Shown here: positions 1 through 9,542 of the stretch, in pieces | How positions within the stretch are numbered: the stretch's first letter is position 1 | How the letters are laid out: each line of letters begins with the position of its first letter | Source: Promethearchaeota archaeon | GTDB taxonomy: Archaea; Asgardarchaeota; Hermodarchaeia; Hermodarchaeales; Hermodarchaeaceae | Assembly (NCBI GenBank): GCA_048938385.1 | Contig: JBHLMG010000002.1 | Span: 96,001-160,000, forward strand | Reading direction: 5' to 3' | Length of the DNA stretch: 64,000 nucleotides | Position numbers and translations under genes: made by a program | Notes under the pieces: model-generated | What the model saw: only the letters and a program-made list of their open reading frames with translations | Told to the model about the DNA's origin: nothing | Databases searched by the model: none

Positions 1-171
1 TGCAACTTTATCTTCCAACTCAATGATCTTGTACGCAAAATCCACACCGATTGACGCCTTGTATTCTCGTTCAAATCGGTTCTCTACGAATTTCAGGATG
101 AGACTGGTTTTTCCCACAGCAGGGTTACCAACTAAAAGAACTTTGAACTCATAGTAAGGCTGTTTTGCCAT
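1..171 (-). CDS. Rab-like small GTPase, N-terminal 57 aa (runs off window start)
   Basis: Not in the ORF track. Manual translation gives MAKQPYYEFKVLLVGNPAVGKTSLILKFVENRFEREYKASIGVDFAYKIIELEDKVA, with a G1 P-loop (GxxxVGKT) and a Rab-type IGVDF switch I. Confidence 0.9.
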   Translation of the reverse strand, partial: MAKQPYYEFKVLLVGNPAVGKTSLILKFVENRFEREYKASIGVDFAYKIIELEDKVA

Positions 172-282
172 TGTTCCACACCCAAAGCTACTTTATCCTT
201 TATCTTTCCTAATAAATTAGTAGTAACCAATGAGTCTTTTTCTAAAGAACTTTCGAAGAACTATACTCAAACATTAGGCTTT

Positions 283-1266
283 TCAAAGACTGGCTTCCTT
301 TTCACCTTGCTTCCAGCTTTTTGTCCGGAAAAAGTCATAAAAATTTGCCTCAACCACACTCAATTCCAGTGGAGCAATTCGTTGTTCATTTAATGCCTGA
401 AGGAGTTCTGGAATTTGAGTATTAGGGTTTTCTACAAAGATTTTCAGGCTTCCGCGACCAGATCGGATCGTGTTTTTCACAAAGGTAACTTCCTCTACTT
501 GGCGAATTGTGTCCGTGGTAAGCCGGTTAAAGGTAATCTCGATTGCCTCTCCTTTACCGGTGAGGGATTGCACGAGTTCGTCCGGATGTCCTTGGAGAGA
601 AATCCGTCCTTTCTCCAGTAAAACGACTCGGCTGCAATATTCCACGACTTCCAGATCGTGAGAAATTAAGACCATGGAAGTTCCATAATGGTAATTCAAT
701 TGTTTCAGGTAATTGAGGAGTTCATGGCGAAGATGGGCATCAAGTCCCGTTGTAGGTTCATCGAGTAGCAAGATGGGGGGCTGATGGATTAAACCTACAC
801 AAATAGAAACGCGTTTGCGTTCGCCCCCACTGAGGAGCCTTGCAGGTTTATCCATTAAGGACTCACTAAATCCTAAAATACCTAAAAGCTCAATCGCCCG
901 GCGTCGAATTTCTTTTGCGGGTATACCATACATGCGACCAAAGAAATGCGCGTTTTCTAGAGCAGAAAACGGATAATACAAGCTTTGGTCTTCATGCTGA
1001 GGAACATACCCCGTTGCGTAGTGGATTGCGTGCGCTTCCTTTTTCACATCAAATCCGGCGATTTGTACATTTCCTCGATAGGGCTTGAGTTGGGCGGTCA
1101 TCACCCGTAAACAGGTTGTTTTTCCAGAACCAGATGCTCCTATAATTCCAAGGATTTCTCGTTCTCGTGTGTAAAAACTAATGTCGTGAAGAATCTTGAC
1201 TCGTCCTATCTTAGCAGAGGCGTGGTTGAATTCAATTATTTTAGGCGATTTAGCTTCTGCAGTCAG
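283..1266 (-). CDS. ABC-2 (DrrA-like) exporter ATP-binding protein; probable CTG start at 1266
   Basis: LSGGE signature and LLLDEPT Walker B lie in the track ORF (283..1104). Walker A GASGSGKT lies upstream in the same open frame, which begins right after the TGA at 1270-1272. Confidence 0.88.
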   Translation of the reverse strand: MTAEAKSPKIIEFNHASAKIGRVKILHDISFYTREREILGIIGASGSGKTTCLRVMTAQLKPYRGNVQIAGFDVKKEAHAIHYATGYVPQHEDQSLYYPFSALENAHFFGRMYGIPAKEIRRRAIELLGILGFSESLMDKPARLLSGGERKRVSICVGLIHQPPILLLDEPTTGLDAHLRHELLNYLKQLNYHYGTSMVLISHDLEVVEYCSRVVLLEKGRISLQGHPDELVQSLTGKGEAIEITFNRLTTDTIRQVEEVTFVKNTIRSGRGSLKIFVENPNTQIPELLQALNEQRIAPLELSVVEANFYDFFRTKSWKQGEKEASL

Positions 1267-1269
1267 CTT

Positions 1270-4200
1270 TCACACCCCTGTTTCTTTGGCAAGTTCACGG
1301 AGCCGTTTGAGCATTTCTTCTAGTCTTTCAGCAGGATCGCCTGATGTGATGCGGAGTTTTTCGAGGCGGTCAATCCGTCGGTCAGTAAGTACCCATTCTA
1401 TCTCACGGATAATTGCCTGAGTTGTATTCATGGTATTTTCAATGTCTTGAAGTAACTGTTCATCTAATGATGAGGTACGCATCCGTCGCTGCCGACGGTA
1501 TTGGTTGAGAAAATATCCTGCAATGATGAGCGTTAAGGCAATGGAGAAAAGGGCGATTTGGAGCATCATGATTGCAAAGAAGTTGGGTGTCGGGGGTGGG
1601 AGTGGTCTATCGGGTGCTGGGTCGTAGTAGAAGATCATGTAGGCTGTGCTGCTCGCGTAAATTCCTGGTAGCGTGAATACTGTAATAGTAAAGGTTTGGG
1701 TGGTGTTCACTTGAGTATCCAGTCCAGTCCAATTAGCAAATAGAAATGTACCATAGCGTCCTTCTTTGACTTCAAAGGCAATGAAAAAGAAGCGTGAACC
1801 GTTCGGAAAGGTGTAGATAATGAACATTTCAAGGTCTTCGACACCTTGTCCAGTTTGATTATAAGCATCGATTACGAAACCTGCATCTCTTCCAATGGTA
1901 AACCTAGAACCGTTTCCGCCAGTAGGGCGGATACTTATGCTCACGGTGTTACGGAACAGATGTCTGATCGTTTGGTTAGCAAATCGGAGGTTGTCAAGGG
2001 TATATATGTGGTCATTACCAAATATCCTAGAACATCCAAGGACAAAGAGTTCTTTACCCACATCTGTGTTATAAACGCCAACCGGAGTGCCATTAGCCCA
2101 GGCAAAGGGTTGAGCCGGTCCGATCTGTGGAATCGTTGTCCCCCCCGTAATCGAAATTACATTAACATTGACGGTGAATGGCATCGTGGGGTGCAATTCG
2201 GTGGTATTTTCACCAGAAATTCCCCCTCCTAATTGGATGCTATGATTGAAGAGTAACTGGTTCAATGTAGTGTGATTAGATGATGTGGAGTCATCTGCTA
2301 AGACAAGAACTTTGAATCCCGAATTAATGAACTCGGAGATGGCATTGGTTTCATTTTGCGTAAAGGCTTTCTCGGGATCACAAAGGATTAACCCGTCAAA
2401 GAGGGAGAGAATAGTGGAATTGATTTCTGTAACTAGGGGAATTTCTGCAAGGTTAAGTTGAATATCAGCAAAGAGCTGTCGCAACCGGGAATAACCGGTA
2501 AGGAGGCTGTCACCTATTTCTTCAAAGAGTACAAGTATTTCATCGAGGCTTAACTCTGAAAAATCGAGGTTATCAAGGCGGGTGAAATCTAATCCTTGGT
2601 TATGAACTGTGTCGAAGAGAACCACCGCCTTTGGATAGGTGATGTTGATAATAAAGGGTAAGGTGAGATGCCAGCCATCCGATGCACTGAGTACGAGATT
2701 TCCGTAATAGGGTCCTGCTTCAATGAAGGTGGGAATAAGGGTCAGGATTTGAAACTGTGTGCTCCCACTGATGTCATATATGTGCTGGGGGGTAAGAGTT
2801 GGTGGATTCTCCCACCGCGTCACATTTCGATCAAAGGCATAGTCCAAGGATGAATTGTAATACTCGGTGATTTCAACAAAGAGATGAGGAATAGGTGTAG
2901 ACGAAATTAAAGAGAAGTTGTAGATGGCATAGTCGTTGGGGAATTGGAGAGTCATAGGACTGAAGGGGAGAATGGAAGGAATCAGCATACGCATTCTAGG
3001 ATGGGTGCAAATGAAGGCGTCACGAAATACAAGGTTATCTAAGGGGTATAGGTCACTTGGAATGATGGGAATGAAGAGGTCAAAATCTATCATAGGAGAG
3101 ACGATCCATCCGACGAAGTAGATGTCAGTCACTTCGGGGTCCCATTCAACTTCGAGTGGTTGAAACTGGAAGGGTTCAAAGATCCCTATTTGGAAATACC
3201 TCGCAAATACTGCCCCGCCCTGAGGTTGTGATCGATTAGTAAAGAATGCAGCAATTGAATCCACTCCTACATCCCCAATATTCAACGCGATGATGCTGGT
3301 TGAATAAGCGCTGGTCGTAGTGCCTGTGCGCGGTAAATCCACACGAATCATACAGAGATCTGTCAACGGGACTACTACGGATTCATGGTTGGTGCCATTG
3401 ATTCCGTATGTGAGTGCAGTCATGTTTCTACCAAATCCTAGGGTCATCGATACATTCAACGCCTTCGCACCAGTGGATATGTTTCCAATCTGCCATTGAG
3501 TACCTAGTCCTATCCCTTCATCGCTCGAATAGGTCGTTGCGCCAGTCAAGGTTTCGTTTTGGACTCGTGCAGTTACTTCCTCATAAGGACCAACCTGAAA
3601 ATTGGAAAAGGGAGTGGTGCCATTCACTCCAACGAATTGGTCAACCCGTGAGGTCTCGTTAGGGGGTAAGGCATCACGGTGAATGTGGAAAAGCTGAGCT
3701 GTATCGTTGAAGAAAGCTTGTTGGACAGAAGTGTCATTCGCCCCAGAAAAGAGGTCGAAATTCCAGAGGCTGTATAAGCAAATATCCTTCACCTCTTCTG
3801 CTCCAATATTTACGAAGAAAAAGGAGAAGCGAAAAGCGTTCGCAGATGGACCATTATTTAACCGCCAACACTCGACTCGTGGGATTATCAACAAGTCATT
3901 GTATGATAGTATCCCGGTGGCACGAACATAATCTCCAAAGGGGAGCCCGGTCCAGTGAAACTCTTGTTCGATATCCAGAAAGGCCAACCCTGTGGGGCTA
4001 TTGTTTCCTACCGCAAGGGAAAACATTCCCATTAACATATGAAACATCGTGAGATTCGTTACCTGACTCGTCACTATACCTGCAATTGCAGTAGCGTACC
4101 CACTGAGCAATAGAGTTACATTTTCTTGAGTTCCCTCACTCATTACCAAACCATAATATGGTAATCCAGGACTTACGCTTCGTGCCCGAAAACCTGTGGG

Positions 4201-5682
4201 AAATGGATTGTGAATTGTGGCTAGCTCGGAATACGCTTGAAAGGCATTTAATAAGCCAGCTCCCTCTTCATTTGGTTCATTCGAATAGGGGGTAGCCCCT
4301 CGTCTGATTCCAATCGATAAATGTTCAGGGGTGGCAAACCGGTTCCCCTGCAGTAGAAGACAAGCGGCTCCTGCGGTAATCGCTGCAGAAGCAGCTGTTG
4401 TACTAGCTTGTGTATAATTCTCATTCACTGGAGTTCCAAATATTCCTCCACTCAAGATACCAACATCAAAGTCATCAAGAGAAAATGGTATGGAGAGGTT
4501 CCCGATTTCAGTGGGGATGATATCATGCAACGAGGAGGCAATAACACCAATCCCCGGTGCTACGATATCGGGTTTAGTGCGCATATCGAGGGTAGGTCCA
4601 CGGCTACTAAATTCAGCAACCTTTGCCTGTGTGACATCAAAGGCTCCTACTGTCATTGCTGCAATCGATTCTCCTGGAGATAAGATGGTCATATGGTTTG
4701 GCCCCGAATCCCCTGCTGCCGTAATTACTAATACACCGCGGGCTGTTGCGGCTTGTACGGCTTTTGAAAGAGGATCTCCTGGTAAACCTAAGGTGGAAAA
4801 GGGGATGAGAATGATATCTGCGCCATTTGTAACGCTCCATTCAATACCACGAATAATCCAAGATGAGTATCCTTGACCCTCGCTGAGTAACACCTTTACA
4901 CTGATGAGTTGGGCGGCTGGGGCTATTCCAGTATAGTTGCCATTAGAAGCAGCCCCAGTTCCTGCGACCAACCCTGCACAATATGTTCCATGACCATTCA
5001 AATCGAAAGGAAAGGGATCACCTTCTGCAAACGAAACCTGAGCTAAAACCTTGGGGTCAGTTGTACTTTCGTTATCATCCATATCATCCAAATCTGGATG
5101 CGTAGCATCAATTCCAGTAGATAGAATTGCGACAACTGTGTGAGCTCCATTAAAACCTTGGTTGTATAGCGGATTGACGCCGATACTTTCACGGGGATGT
5201 AGGTAACCAGTAGGTGGTATGACTTGTCCATCCCTGAAAAGGGAGGGAGAGCTCACATCGAGTTGGAATTGAGCATCCGACCATAACTTTTGAATCTCTG
5301 ACAATGCCGCAAGCTCAGTTAACGAGCCTACTGTGGTTTCTAGCGATAATGCATGGATAATTGCATGATAGGTTTTTATCCGGGTGAGTACTCCCAGTTG
5401 GAGAATTGCACGCTGAGTTGCCTGTATTTCTGCATCAGGGAATAATTGGGCAATGACATTAACTGATTGGTTAGAATCAGAAGTCGTTGAAATCAAACGC
5501 AGTAAGGGTTCAGAGATTTTTGCCTCAACAGGCTCGGGTGTTGAACCTAAGAAGGAAATGACAGTTGCGGATTGACAAGCTTGCAGCATAGGGGTAGAGA
5601 GCAAGACAAAACCGAATAACACTCCCTGTAAAATGGCATGAATGTCAGGTTTTCGCCAGTTAGGTTGTAGCACCTTACTCAC
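1270..5682 (-). CDS. Membrane-anchored S8 subtilase-like protein with Site-1 protease (MBTPS1)-like architecture; catalytic residues degenerate
   Basis: N-terminal hydrophobic signal, prodomain, S8 motifs (HGTYCAG, FSSRGP, KPDIVAPG), LFDTVHN...DPEKAF...VLAD domain, C-terminal TM and basic tail. Confidence 0.85.
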   Translation of the reverse strand: MSKVLQPNWRKPDIHAILQGVLFGFVLLSTPMLQACQSATVISFLGSTPEPVEAKISEPLLRLISTTSDSNQSVNVIAQLFPDAEIQATQRAILQLGVLTRIKTYHAIIHALSLETTVGSLTELAALSEIQKLWSDAQFQLDVSSPSLFRDGQVIPPTGYLHPRESIGVNPLYNQGFNGAHTVVAILSTGIDATHPDLDDMDDNESTTDPKVLAQVSFAEGDPFPFDLNGHGTYCAGLVAGTGAASNGNYTGIAPAAQLISVKVLLSEGQGYSSWIIRGIEWSVTNGADIILIPFSTLGLPGDPLSKAVQAATARGVLVITAAGDSGPNHMTILSPGESIAAMTVGAFDVTQAKVAEFSSRGPTLDMRTKPDIVAPGIGVIASSLHDIIPTEIGNLSIPFSLDDFDVGILSGGIFGTPVNENYTQASTTAASAAITAGAACLLLQGNRFATPEHLSIGIRRGATPYSNEPNEEGAGLLNAFQAYSELATIHNPFPTGFRARSVSPGLPYYGLVMSEGTQENVTLLLSGYATAIAGIVTSQVTNLTMFHMLMGMFSLAVGNNSPTGLAFLDIEQEFHWTGLPFGDYVRATGILSYNDLLIIPRVECWRLNNGPSANAFRFSFFFVNIGAEEVKDICLYSLWNFDLFSGANDTSVQQAFFNDTAQLFHIHRDALPPNETSRVDQFVGVNGTTPFSNFQVGPYEEVTARVQNETLTGATTYSSDEGIGLGTQWQIGNISTGAKALNVSMTLGFGRNMTALTYGINGTNHESVVVPLTDLCMIRVDLPRTGTTTSAYSTSIIALNIGDVGVDSIAAFFTNRSQPQGGAVFARYFQIGIFEPFQFQPLEVEWDPEVTDIYFVGWIVSPMIDFDLFIPIIPSDLYPLDNLVFRDAFICTHPRMRMLIPSILPFSPMTLQFPNDYAIYNFSLISSTPIPHLFVEITEYYNSSLDYAFDRNVTRWENPPTLTPQHIYDISGSTQFQILTLIPTFIEAGPYYGNLVLSASDGWHLTLPFIINITYPKAVVLFDTVHNQGLDFTRLDNLDFSELSLDEILVLFEEIGDSLLTGYSRLRQLFADIQLNLAEIPLVTEINSTILSLFDGLILCDPEKAFTQNETNAISEFINSGFKVLVLADDSTSSNHTTLNQLLFNHSIQLGGGISGENTTELHPTMPFTVNVNVISITGGTTIPQIGPAQPFAWANGTPVGVYNTDVGKELFVLGCSRIFGNDHIYTLDNLRFANQTIRHLFRNTVSISIRPTGGNGSRFTIGRDAGFVIDAYNQTGQGVEDLEMFIIYTFPNGSRFFFIAFEVKEGRYGTFLFANWTGLDTQVNTTQTFTITVFTLPGIYASSTAYMIFYYDPAPDRPLPPPTPNFFAIMMLQIALFSIALTLIIAGYFLNQYRRQRRMRTSSLDEQLLQDIENTMNTTQAIIREIEWVLTDRRIDRLEKLRITSGDPAERLEEMLKRLRELAKETGV

Positions 5683-7337
5683 ACTTCCAATTGGCGTCCT
5701 GTGATGAGAATGAAGTAATCTGTCATGTCGACGCCCATTTTTGGTTTGACGCTTTTGATCTCAATTCCCTTTTGTTGTAGCGTGCGTGTAACCCGTTCTG
5801 CCATTTCTGCTAAAGGAACTTCTGTGAACACTTTGATGAGTTCACCCCGTTCAAGGACATGAATGATACCAGGTACATCTCGAAGGTCCGTAGCAATTCC
5901 CGGGTGTGGTGCTTTGAGGATGATTCCAACAGCATATCCTTTACCAGGCAGGGAAGCTTTGAGTTCATTCGGTGAGCCGTAAGCTATGAGACTGCGTTCC
6001 CTTAGGAACACTCCCACTTTATCGCAGTATTCACCCTCTCCCGGATAGTGAGTGACAACAATCATGCTTGTCCCGTATTCACGGTTTAAGTAATCAAGAT
6101 AATCCCAAAGCTCACTCCGTGCATCAGGATCAAGCCCAGAGGTAGGTTCGTCAAGAATTAAAAGCTGGGGTCGATGGACCATGGAAATAGAAATAGAAGC
6201 TCGGCGTTTTTCACCACCTGAAAGGGTTCTCACGGTTTGGTTGCCCTTTTCGAAAATTCCTAAATCACGCAGTAACACCTTACCTCGACGAACCAGCTCT
6301 ACTTCTGGGATTCCGTATTGTTTCCCAAACTCAATGATGTTCTCTAAGGGAGTGAAATTTTGGTACATATACCCCAAATCCTGTGGTACAAAACCGAAGA
6401 GGGGTTTCACCTGAGTCCGGTTCGTTGATCTGATTCCGCCAATCATTGCTCGTCCGCTAGTTGGAATGATATCCCCAATGAGGGCTCGAATCGTTGTTGA
6501 TTTCCCAGAGCCTGATTCTCCGATGATGCCCATAATTTGACCAGACGGAAGTTTGAAGGAAACATCTCGTATAATGTCAAAGCTATCATCAACAGTAACA
6601 GTGAGGTTCTCAGCAATAATGACGTTTTCCACGCGTCCGCGAGTTCTCGCATAGGCAGGGGTAAAGAGCATTTTTTGAGCATTCACATCAGGTACAATGC
6701 TGATTAACTCACGCATAATTTCTGGGGCTGTTTCACGACCTCCAATAGTAACTACCTCTCCACCTTTTTGCGTCTCTGTACCAGAAACCAGCACCCGTAA
6801 TTCTAAGAGACCGACTCGTAATCGCTCCATCCGAGCGTTAGTGACGGTTCCATGGATGTCTACTTCTTGTCCTTCTTTATTATGACCCCAAATATGAGCG
6901 TCAACTTCCGTGTAAGCTAATAGCTCTTCGACACGTTTCACTGCATGATCGATATCATCGCCGTCATAGTAGAAATCATCATGCAAGTTCCGGCGTAACC
7001 AGTTCATGAGTACAAGCTGCTTTGCAGTTAAATCCTCACGCTCTGTCTTATCTGAGCCCACGGTAAGTACTTTTCCTTGAAAATGAGCAGGACCTTGTTG
7101 AACAGAACTAACTAACAGGGCGATACGACTGCGGCGTCCTCGGCGACGGATGTCAAGGACGCGTCCTTCGATGGTAAGCTCTTCTTGTTGAGGTGATCGA
7201 AGTTTCCCTGTGATTTGTGCATGAATTTCTCGGTCACCGCGTTGCTCAATCCAATCGAGGGCGTCATCGAAGCGTGAGCCAGCAAAGTAGTTCTTTTCTA
7301 CGAAGACCGGAATATCCTGTCTGACTTCCATACACAT
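5679..7337 (-). CDS. ABC-2 ATP-binding protein with a duplicated N-terminal extra domain
   Basis: GESGSGKS, LSGGE, LILDEPTSGLD; about 230-aa N-terminal extension. Confidence 0.9.
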   Translation of the reverse strand: MCMEVRQDIPVFVEKNYFAGSRFDDALDWIEQRGDREIHAQITGKLRSPQQEELTIEGRVLDIRRRGRRSRIALLVSSVQQGPAHFQGKVLTVGSDKTEREDLTAKQLVLMNWLRRNLHDDFYYDGDDIDHAVKRVEELLAYTEVDAHIWGHNKEGQEVDIHGTVTNARMERLRVGLLELRVLVSGTETQKGGEVVTIGGRETAPEIMRELISIVPDVNAQKMLFTPAYARTRGRVENVIIAENLTVTVDDSFDIIRDVSFKLPSGQIMGIIGESGSGKSTTIRALIGDIIPTSGRAMIGGIRSTNRTQVKPLFGFVPQDLGYMYQNFTPLENIIEFGKQYGIPEVELVRRGKVLLRDLGIFEKGNQTVRTLSGGEKRRASISISMVHRPQLLILDEPTSGLDPDARSELWDYLDYLNREYGTSMIVVTHYPGEGEYCDKVGVFLRERSLIAYGSPNELKASLPGKGYAVGIILKAPHPGIATDLRDVPGIIHVLERGELIKVFTEVPLAEMAERVTRTLQQKGIEIKSVKPKMGVDMTDYFILITGRQLEV

Positions 7338-8624: not shown

Positions 8625-9542
8625 ATGAGCGAAGAACCGCCCCCAGAGAAACCGGATGATGTCCTTAGTTGGGCAAAGCACTGGCAACCCAAATGGAAAA
8701 CCCACATAACCTTTCCTGAAAATCCTGTTTTCGTGGGGCTCTTTGATTTCGTAAACCAAACAAATGATTTGGATCCAACTATACATACTAGGGGGCATCA
8801 ACTCCTTTTACGCTTCGAACACGCCTATGACCCTGAAGGCTTTCATTACACATTTCCACTTCCTGACCTCGATGCTAAAGTCGATGTGGTTCCCTACAAG
8901 CCCGATTACTCTATGTTAAAGAAACGCTATTTCATGAATCGCTCCAAGGAGTTCGACCGTCTCGCACAAAGCTTGATCCATCAATTACCAATGGACCAAC
9001 AAGGAGGCCAAGTCCGAACCCTAGAGGAAGTTATGCTTCTCCAAAATTTCAACATAGAAGTTATCAAAATCACACAAGAAACTCTCTTTGGAAACCCAGA
9101 TCCTGCCAAATATCGATACCTCAACAACCCTGTTTCTTTCCTCAACCTACAGAATGGTTGGATCGTCGTTCCTGATGACAGCGTTAAATTGAAACTCAAC
9201 CTGGGAGTTGAATACGAACATGTGTTCCGCCTCTCCTATCGGTTTGACTCAAAGGAAGGTCCAGCTGTCGAAAACTACCAAAAATATGAATCTGCCCTTC
9301 AACGGCTCTCCCGCCAAACCATCCGCCGAGTCTTTTCAAATCTAGGCACCTACACGAGCATTATCCACAACCCGTTTTTCAGTGATATCAGCCAGCGGTT
9401 TCCTGTTCGATATGTTGCATTGAATAACGGTATGCTGGTTGCATCACTCGGACAAGGCTCAACCTGGGAAAACGGCACCTTTGAATTTTACAAACCTACA
9501 GAACGCCGAGAACGGCTCTTCGGTCTCTTAGAAACAGAATAA
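8625..9542 (+). CDS. hypothetical protein
   Basis: 305-aa ORF with ATG start; no recognisable motif. Confidence 0.75.
   Translation: MSEEPPPEKPDDVLSWAKHWQPKWKTHITFPENPVFVGLFDFVNQTNDLDPTIHTRGHQLLLRFEHAYDPEGFHYTFPLPDLDAKVDVVPYKPDYSMLKKRYFMNRSKEFDRLAQSLIHQLPMDQQGGQVRTLEEVMLLQNFNIEVIKITQETLFGNPDPAKYRYLNNPVSFLNLQNGWIVVPDDSVKLKLNLGVEYEHVFRLSYRFDSKEGPAVENYQKYESALQRLSRQTIRRVFSNLGTYTSIIHNPFFSDISQRFPVRYVALNNGMLVASLGQGSTWENGTFEFYKPTERRERLFGLLETE

Follow-up and report, generated by a model that had tools for sequence, protein, structure and literature searches.

A subtilase-GIFT membrane protein lacking canonical catalytic residues, encoded beside an ABC-2 transporter in Asgard archaea

What is a subtilase kept for once the residues that made it a protease are gone? 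The question is raised by an open reading frame (ORF) at positions 1270-5682, on the minus strand, of a 64,000-nucleotide stretch of the Promethearchaeota archaeon assembly GCA_048938385.1 (Asgardarchaeota; Hermodarchaeia; contig JBHLMG010000002.1, positions 96,001 to 160,000), which we call the window and to which the coordinates below refer. The frame is open for 1470 codons, and its GTG start overlaps the stop of an upstream ATPase gene; the 1470-amino acid (aa) product is probably, to judge by its sequence, a large, sugar-coated type-I membrane glycoprotein of the cell surface. Peptidase_S8 (PF00082) at aa 180-474 is the sole strong domain in a Pfam scan (E 4.6e-43, 148 bits against a cut-off of 21.8), and NCBI and JGI label members of the family 'S8 family serine peptidase' or 'subtilisin family serine protease'. 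A first-pass annotation had proposed an archaeal pseudoprotease of the site-1 protease lineage (S1P; MBTPS1/SKI-1), with a dead catalytic triad, repurposed as a receptor or scaffold. We find that the domain has lost most of its catalytic set, and we propose, with a probability that we put at roughly 65%, that the protein is a non-catalytic, GldG-like extracytoplasmic accessory subunit of an Asgard ATP-binding cassette (ABC) transporter of the ABC-2 type.

Catalytic positions of the subtilase domain

In a search of PDB sequences, the nearest solved relative of the S8 domain is the Thermococcus subtilisin Tk-SP (PDB 3afg; E 6e-49, 170 bits), and the alignment begins inside the Tk-SP propeptide. 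Alignment to Tk-SP and to subtilisin BPN' places all four catalytic positions in motifs that each occur once in the protein, and where the first-pass annotation had put them. Specifically, i) the Asp motif GIIDTGID reads AILSTGID (ILSTG at aa 186-190), and the Asp is replaced by S188; ii) the His motif NGHGT (aa 229-233) is unchanged, and H231 is retained; iii) the oxyanion motif AAGNSGPN reads AAGDSGPN (AAGD at aa 322-325), and the Asn is replaced by D325; and iv) the nucleophile position in GT(S)MA falls within TTAAS (aa 428-432), and the Ser is replaced by A430. Three of the four catalytic positions are therefore replaced: the domain has the fold, the sequence family and the His of an S8 peptidase, but not the Asp, the oxyanion Asn or the nucleophile Ser. 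We conclude that this is a subtilase-fold protein predicted to be unable to use the canonical Ser/His/Asp mechanism, and that it would not cut peptide bonds as subtilisin does.

These losses differ in how widely they are shared. A430, D325 and H231 are invariant in all 27 full-length close homologues, and the catalytic Asp position carries D in 26 of the 27 and S solely in the protein of this species; nine species of the same genus all have D there (9/9). The description of a dead catalytic triad thus holds family-wide for A430 and D325, but Ser188, correctly read, is a private change of this species and not a family trait. The S188 codon (TCT) is at least two base changes away from any Asp codon. 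Contigs from four sediment sequencing runs are identical to the window over the covered parts of 4300-5300, the S188 codon being covered by all four and the A430 codon by three; all four runs come from one study, and two of them may be the source of the assembly. Because the four runs carry identical sequence, an assembly error behind S188 or A430 is unlikely. The search of sequencing runs for the gene returned contigs from sediment DNA only, with no RNA run among those listed. Decay into a pseudogene is ruled out, since the frame is intact, the full-length product is 63-77% identical to homologues from the same genus or family, and the sequence is the same in the four runs.

How far does the catalytic erosion extend? 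Thirty close homologues, 48-78% identical, come from assemblies labelled Hermod-, Prometh- or Thorarchaeota. A query with the S8 domain only returned 348 proteins at E <= 1e-20, the best 120 of which are almost all from Asgard archaea, 1250-1490 aa long, with both S8 and GIFT-type Pfam matches. Among some 120 cluster representatives (of Thor-, Loki-, Hel-, Frey-, Jord-, Ran- and Hermod-type Asgard archaea), the oxyanion position is D throughout, wherever the column aligned; the nucleophile position is A in about 80, T in about 30, S in 7, and otherwise L or F, a variability such as would be expected of an unconstrained former nucleophile; and the Asp and His are mostly retained, with replacements in several branches. 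An exhaustive profile search added a second dead clade of 1540-1780 aa, which mostly carries D-R-D-G at the catalytic positions, and a further S8-GIFT group with the canonical D-H-N-S set. In a tree of 51 S8 domains (37 non-canonical and 14 canonical, built by a quick search and rooted at the midpoint only), a branch with an SH-aLRT (Shimodaira-Hasegawa-like approximate likelihood ratio test) value of 99 separates all the dead sequences from all the canonical ones, and the D-R-D-G clade is nested among the other dead sequences. This topology is compatible with a single old loss of catalysis followed by further erosion, as is the private D188S change.

Mean identity to the reference is 72% for the S8 domain, 71% for the cytoplasmic tail, 62% for the middle region, 60% for the GIFT domain and 37% for the propeptide-like domain, so that the S8 domain is the best conserved part of the protein and the propeptide-like domain the least. 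Because S8 is the best conserved domain despite the loss of its residues, the fold, which is under strong constraint, appears to be needed and its chemistry not, in line with the pseudoprotease of the first-pass annotation. Segments that bind the substrate backbone in subtilisin are retained (G269 and G271, corresponding to BPN' 100 and 102; S296 and G299, corresponding to BPN' 125 and 128), and the preservation of most of these glycine-rich segments, BPN' 100-102 and 125-128, suggests a putative peptide-binding groove. With no nucleophile to act on it, the propeptide-like domain is probably never removed autocatalytically.

A subtilisin fold that remains under selection after losing catalytic residues, and that serves binding or signalling, has a counterpart in CspC and CspA of Clostridioides difficile, which act in germinant sensing. 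The likeness is one of analogy and not of membership: the Csp proteins are soluble spore proteins without a GIFT domain, transmembrane (TM) segment or ABC linkage, and the NCBIfam CspC and CspBA models reach only 31 and 45 bits on the dead protein, against cut-offs of 675 and 1250.

The transporter operon and a candidate outer subunit

The dead subtilase-GIFT gene is flanked in the window, on the same strand, by genes for an ABC-2 permease and for a long and a short ABC ATPase. NCBIfam groups both ATPases with DrrA, GldA and NodI, and the three ABC genes match successive parts of the fused RbbA protein. The long ATPase has an N-terminal extension of about 250 aa (6598-7337, minus strand), with weak TrmB-type Pfam matches, that is specific to genomes carrying the dead gene.

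Conservation of this arrangement can be followed across lineages. The dead gene, permease and two ATPases occur together in 6 of 6 loci of its own clade, namely the window and five loci from other lineages: Promethearchaeota (L003), Guaymas sediment (L004), Thorarchaeota (L010), Helarchaeota (L011, rearranged) and Lokiarchaeia (L012, divergent). In every locus checked the long ATPase gene is adjacent to the large gene. Members of the D-R-D-G clade stand behind an ATPase-permease-permease-ATPase array in 2 of 2 loci (L024:6001-10896 and L025:6001-10611), one from a Promethearchaeota record and the other from a contig of a JGI metagenome, with a protein that falls into one cluster with a Hodarchaeales-labelled sequence; at L025 the D-R-D-G gene is followed by a gene for a 1359-aa beta-helix protein (NosD-like, faintly). 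ABC neighbours are absent at the two canonical-triad S8-GIFT loci checked, from Thorarchaeota and Ranarchaeia. The dead forms are thus ABC-linked, whereas the canonical S8-GIFT forms stand alone.

The same linkage is visible in the phyletic distribution. Of 301 genomes from the phylum, a sample with many incomplete members and with relatives that do not count as independent, 110 gave a match to the family-specific middle region of the dead protein and 103 to the long ATPase's extension, with identical tallies for the two queries in the main carrier families (16/18 in f1, 72/76 in f6, 5/5 in f7 and 6/6 in f18); in most other families searched neither query was found, apart from a few weak matches. 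In most cases the two matches share a contig, at a distance of about 3 kb, and there is about one copy of the dead gene per genome, in near 1:1 co-occurrence with the long ATPase.

Features of the protein itself bear on how it might meet such a transporter. It has 35 N-x-S/T sequons, 34 of them outside the membrane and 18 conserved. The single TM helix (aa 1367-1392) is followed by RRQRRMR, the basic tail that the first-pass annotation had noted. Mean column identity in the cytoplasmic tail is 82% over 27 sequences, and the tail motif is retained across 117 members of the superfamily, Helarchaeota excepted, where there is a short basic tail.

It is the conserved operon of permease and two ATPases that leads us to the accessory-subunit reading. 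The receptor or scaffold of the first-pass annotation was too vague a description, and an ABC-2 accessory subunit, to which the operon points, had not been considered. From the residue losses, conservation, domain folds and gene linkage we infer a physical association with the transporter, a direction of coupling and a kind of ligand, as follows: ATP-driven movements of the transporter would be coupled, via the TM helix and tail as the link to the ATPases, to a large outer binding platform, which would hold or hand on a cargo or partner; the dead protease groove would be a peptide-binding site, and the supersandwich (below) and GIFT domains would be possible glycan-binding modules.

Precedents come from GldA/GldF/GldG, NosDFY, FtsEX-EnvC and the Csp proteins. 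GldG and the PF09822 auxiliaries are, like the dead protein, membrane-anchored extracytoplasmic GIFT proteins beside an ABC-2 permease and DrrA/GldA-like ATPases; unlike GldG, the dead protein also carries its inactive subtilase, its supersandwich and an extended cytoplasmic tail, and it is accompanied by two different ATPases and one permease. NosDFY is an ABC-2 transporter with a large outer partner, and FtsEX-EnvC uses a degenerate, catalytically dead enzyme fold as an adaptor. In both, the ATPase cycle on the cytoplasmic side is tied to a protein outside the membrane, instead of, or in addition to, the movement of a solute; their outer partners have no sequence relationship to the dead protein.

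Several points weigh against an accessory subunit. PF09822 (ABC_transp_aux) reaches 37 bits, above its cut-off, in relatives, but only 25.6 bits on the dead protein itself, below the cut-off of 34.7; the NCBIfam GldG model (TIGR03521) has no match at E <= 0.001; the relatives with Ser (7 of about 120) or Thr (about 30) at the nucleophile position leave room for unconventional catalysis; to our knowledge, the function of the GIFT domain has not been established in any family that has one; and the gene linkage, taken by itself, is as compatible with a cargo or client of the transporter as with a subunit.

That last point leads to the best-surviving alternative, in which the protein would be an S-layer-like or adhesin surface glycoprotein that depends on export by the transporter for its display or for its glycan or lipid modification. 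ABC-2 transporters typically export glycans or lipids, and a large, sequon-rich ectodomain with beta-sandwich modules would suit such a client. We nevertheless consider a client unlikely, as the single TM helix and conserved 78-aa tail suggest cytoplasmic signalling or docking, the gene is present in one copy per genome and near 1:1 with the long ATPase, and a GIFT module is a hallmark of GldG-type ABC auxiliary proteins (PMC5898192). The archaeal DUF4350/arCOG01314 proteins are membrane-anchored extracytoplasmic GIFT proteins too, but the genes linked to them are of the MoxR/vWA kind and not ABC genes (PMC5898192).

Site-1 protease and the other GIFT proteins

Is the dead protein an archaeal member of the S1P lineage, sharing an S8-GIFT-TM ancestor with S1P, deprived of catalysis and acting as a stand-alone receptor or scaffold only loosely related to the ABC genes? 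In eukaryotic S1P, a pro-domain and a Peptidase S8 subdomain are followed by a P-like subdomain, then by a GIFT subdomain (617-998) and by a TM segment (PMC11231238). The first-pass annotation based its proposal on five segments downstream of the catalytic domain that resembled S1P, all of which are present, each once: LFDTVHN (aa 1022-1028), GDSLLTGYSRL (aa 1057-1067), ILCDPEKAF (aa 1099-1107), SGFKVLVLAD (aa 1121-1130) and NHTTLNQLL (aa 1136-1144). The parallel that it saw is real, in that the segments lie in a GIFT domain, a domain type shared with S1P (PMC11231238); VIA-align superposes aa 1013-1244 of the model on S1P 614-872 with Z 16.8 and a root-mean-square deviation (rmsd) of 2.8 A over 190 residues. 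Both proteins also have S8, GIFT, TM and basic tail in the same order.

Structural comparison of the C-terminal module places other proteins closer. Weak Pfam matches at aa 1061-1237 are to ABC_transp_aux, IFT52_GIFT and DUF4350. The model of aa 1005-1365 (predicted local distance difference test, pLDDT, 71, with the first 80 residues poor) contains a GATase1-like alpha/beta domain and a beta-sandwich. In a Foldseek search with this model, OST48/Wbp1 comes out on top (E 4e-12 to 5e-11, over both domains and about 405-430 columns), followed by IFT52; S1P is matched, but only at rank 42 (E 6.5e-7). By VIA-align the GIFT domain fits IFT52 best (Z 22.9, rmsd 2.2 A over 192 residues), and generic GATase1-like proteins give Z 17.5; GIFT and beta-sandwich together, which resemble the pair of luminal domains in OST48/Wbp1, fit OST48 with Z 19-20 over 300 residues and an rmsd of about 13 A. 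A profile of the C-terminal family searched against PDB sequences matches IFT52 at E 6e-6 and leaves S1P unmatched at E <= 10. An atlas feature search gave OST48 a score of 0.84, which we regard as a lead only. The closeness to IFT52 concerns its N-terminal GIFT domain; IFT52 is cytoplasmic. OST48/Wbp1 shares the layout of GIFT domain, beta-sandwich and TM helix with the C-terminal module of the dead protein, but the orientation between the domains differs (the two-domain rmsd is about 13 A), a Pfam scan at E <= 1 gives no OST48 match, and the operon neighbourhood holds no STT3-type neighbour or other oligosaccharyltransferase (OST) gene. Eme et al. (2023) describe homologues of WBP1/OST48 from Heimdallarchaeia only.

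The middle of the protein is also unlike S1P. In place of the short P-like subdomain that separates S8 from GIFT in S1P, the dead protein has a spacer of about 520 aa of another fold. An AlphaFold2 (AF2) model of aa 485-1015 (531 residues) is all-beta with a mean pLDDT of 73.7, mostly 80-96 per 10-residue block in the supersandwich part; its first ~270 residues match the beta-supersandwich of GH15 glucoamylase, GH94 phosphorylases, GH116 enzymes and dextran dextrinase (Foldseek E 3e-7; VIA-align Z 18-20, rmsd 3.0-3.4 A over 218-250 residues). The remainder, aa ~776-1010, lies outside these fold matches and appears to form two beta-sandwiches without a family match.

The S8 domain gives a similar answer: it scores 99 bits with BPN', far below Tk-SP, and S1P falls outside the best 60 PDB sequences (<80.6 bits). 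S1P is an active, self-processing enzyme with an Asp/His/Ser triad and an Asn oxyanion residue (PDB 8UW8, 8UWC, 9CSD); it has in common with the dead protein the propeptide, the S8 domain, the later GIFT domain, the single C-terminal TM and the basic start of the tail, but the dead protein has lost nucleophile, oxyanion residue and Asp, and differs further in its long conserved tail and its ABC-2 operon. At E <= 1, Pfam gives no match on the 1470-aa protein to MBTP1_N, MBTPS1_3rd, MBTPS1_4th or any other MBTPS1 family, nor to Inhibitor_I9. Helarchaeota relatives do match MBTPS1_4th above its cut-off of 27 (44 and 39 bits), and one Helarchaeota GIFT domain matches human S1P at E 1.9e-4, with IFT52 ahead at E 2.6e-5. 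Compact S8-GIFT-TM proteins with a canonical triad exist in Asgard archaea, and the S8 domain of one of them, from Thorarchaeota, scores S1P at 96 bits, level with BPN' at 100. Set against these are S8-GIFT fusions outside Asgard archaea (for example in a Bathyarchaeota-labelled cluster), the ABC linkage at 8 of 8 dead-clade loci examined and a phyletic pattern that matches the long ATPase family by family. Among the best 150 proteins of the exhaustive profile search none was recognisable as eukaryotic S1P, and those checked looked prokaryotic (Zn-ribbon tails, CARDB, dockerin). We conclude that the shared domain order and the GIFT superposition stand, but that a specific S1P lineage for the dead protein is not supported; descent from an S1P-like ancestor as a free-standing receptor or scaffold is improbable.

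Two of the compact canonical-triad proteins, of 1008 aa (Thorarchaeota, L022:6001-9027) and 1336 aa (Ranarchaeia, L023:3085-7095), carry zinc ribbons at their C termini; of the prokaryotic proteins that we examined, they come nearest to S1P in layout. We entertain, as a speculation at rather long odds, an old Asgard S8-GIFT-TM superfamily with two arms, one canonical, stand-alone, compact and S1P-like, and the other, after a single loss of catalysis, a dead outer subunit of dedicated ABC-2 transporters for building or remodelling the cell surface; such a superfamily would be the prokaryotic stock of eukaryotic S1P, and its C-terminal module would be related to the source of the GIFT domains of OST48 and IFT52.

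That the protein is an unconventional hydrolase, using water activated by Asp/His/Asp, a Thr or another Ser as nucleophile, or self-processing only, is the least probable alternative and to our minds very unlikely. In its favour, none of the 27 close homologues departs from H231 or D325, H and D are the prevailing residues of these columns family-wide, nearly all relatives have Asp at position 188, S8 is the most conserved part, and Thr or Ser does occur at the nucleophile position. Against it, members of the clade carry any of A, T, S, L, F and G at the nucleophile position; several branches have R, S, T, P or I in place of the His, and G, S, N, A or E in place of the Asp, and yet keep the gene; this species has lost the Asp as well; and an Asp in the oxyanion hole would repel the tetrahedral intermediate.

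The locus and the meaning of the family

The features of the dead protein and its operon are collected in Table 1.

Table 1. Coordinates of the dead subtilase-GIFT gene, its encoded domains and the adjacent ABC genes in the window
Feature	Position	Strand	Basis
N-terminal signal peptide or signal anchor, aa 14-36	5575..5643	-	Basic then hydrophobic stretch in translation
Propeptide-like (I9-type) domain, aa ~50-165	5188..5535	-	aa 100-165 align with the pro-Tk-SP propeptide (3afg chain 60-113)
Subtilase (Peptidase_S8) domain without canonical catalytic set	4231..5187	-	PF00082; alignment to 3afg and BPN'; column counts
S188 codon	5119-5121	-	Codon position in S8 domain
H231 codon	4990-4992	-	Codon position in S8 domain
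D325 codon	4708-4710	-	Codon position in S8 domain
A430 codon	4393-4395	-	Codon position in S8 domain
Beta-supersandwich domain, aa ~505-775 (type of the N-terminal domain of GH15/GH94/GH116 enzymes)	3358..4170	-	AF2 model, Foldseek, VIA-align
Further all-beta region, aa ~776-1010, apparently two sandwich domains	2653..3357	-	Model secondary structure, pLDDT 30-88
GIFT domain (GATase1-like alpha/beta), aa ~1013-1248, containing the S1P-like motifs	1939..2646	-	Weak Pfam, family profile, VIA-align
Membrane-proximal beta-sandwich, aa ~1249-1355	1618..1938	-	Foldseek and VIA-align against OST48/Wbp1
Single TM helix, aa 1367-1392	1507..1584	-	Only Kyte-Doolittle window >1.8
Conserved cytoplasmic tail, 78 aa: basic stretch, then predicted helical region, IDNTLN-type motif	1273..1506	-	Column identity
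Long ABC ATPase, 552 aa, stop overlapping the start of the large gene	5679..7337	-	Pfam ABC_tran; NCBIfam DrrA-, RbbA-like
ABC-2 family permease, 373 aa	7353..8474	-	Pfam ABC2_membrane_3 (E 1.4e-23); conserved neighbour
Short ABC ATPase, 327 aa, probable CTG start	283..1266	-	NCBIfam DrrA-, GldA-like

The start of the short ATPase gene is unusual. Its frame is open from 1269 (window 1264-1272, minus strand), in frame directly after the TGA of the large gene, and its Walker A motif precedes the first ATG, GTG or TTG; in an alignment with five orthologues, a CTG at 1266-1264 coincides exactly with their ATG start. Initiation at CTG, or a mutation of the start codon, is likely on this alignment.

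Other genes surround the operon. Just downstream, a gene for a Rab/Arf-like small GTPase (window 1-192, minus strand) runs off the window; a GTPase gene (Arf/Ras/Roc Pfam matches, ~174 aa) has the same placement in L003 and L004, and not at the Thorarchaeota, Helarchaeota and Lokiarchaeia loci. Divergent from the permease gene is a 305-aa ORF (window 8625-9542, plus strand) with no Pfam or NCBIfam match, and a gene of the same size and position is found in L003 (4081-4998) and L004 (3983-4912). About 6 kb before the window the same genome encodes a second giant subtilase (L008:4836-9560) of 1574 aa, with intact Asp/His/Asn/Ser motifs, a large insert in its S8 domain and no GIFT domain, 26% identical to the dead protein; a gene of this type occupies the corresponding position in L003 and L004. 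The S8 match is only partial in a third giant gene (L009:1853-6526), and elsewhere in the genome (L002, C48:27622-27876) a weak GIFT-like match (E 2e-4) lies inside a 2305-aa open frame.

We wish to stress what the family may mean for reconstructions of Asgard biology. As the databases label its members serine peptidases, and as the catalytic set is missing clade-wide, metabolic reconstructions of Asgard archaea may miscount them as extracellular peptidases. In a literature search on Asgard archaea together with S1P, GIFT or pseudo-subtilases, we found no paper on a dead subtilase-GIFT family; that most genomes in several Asgard families retain the dead gene as a group with one permease and two ATPases points to a conserved and undescribed machine of the cell envelope. 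Because its layout is shared with S1P and its GIFT domain is close to those of IFT52 and OST48, the family also bears on eukaryogenesis: with both dead and canonical-triad Asgard forms now identified, the origin of the S1P, IFT52 and OST48 modules can be tested by phylogeny, and if an Asgard S8-GIFT-TM stock did give rise to S1P, a protease of the secretory pathway would join the list of eukaryotic proteins derived from Asgard archaea.

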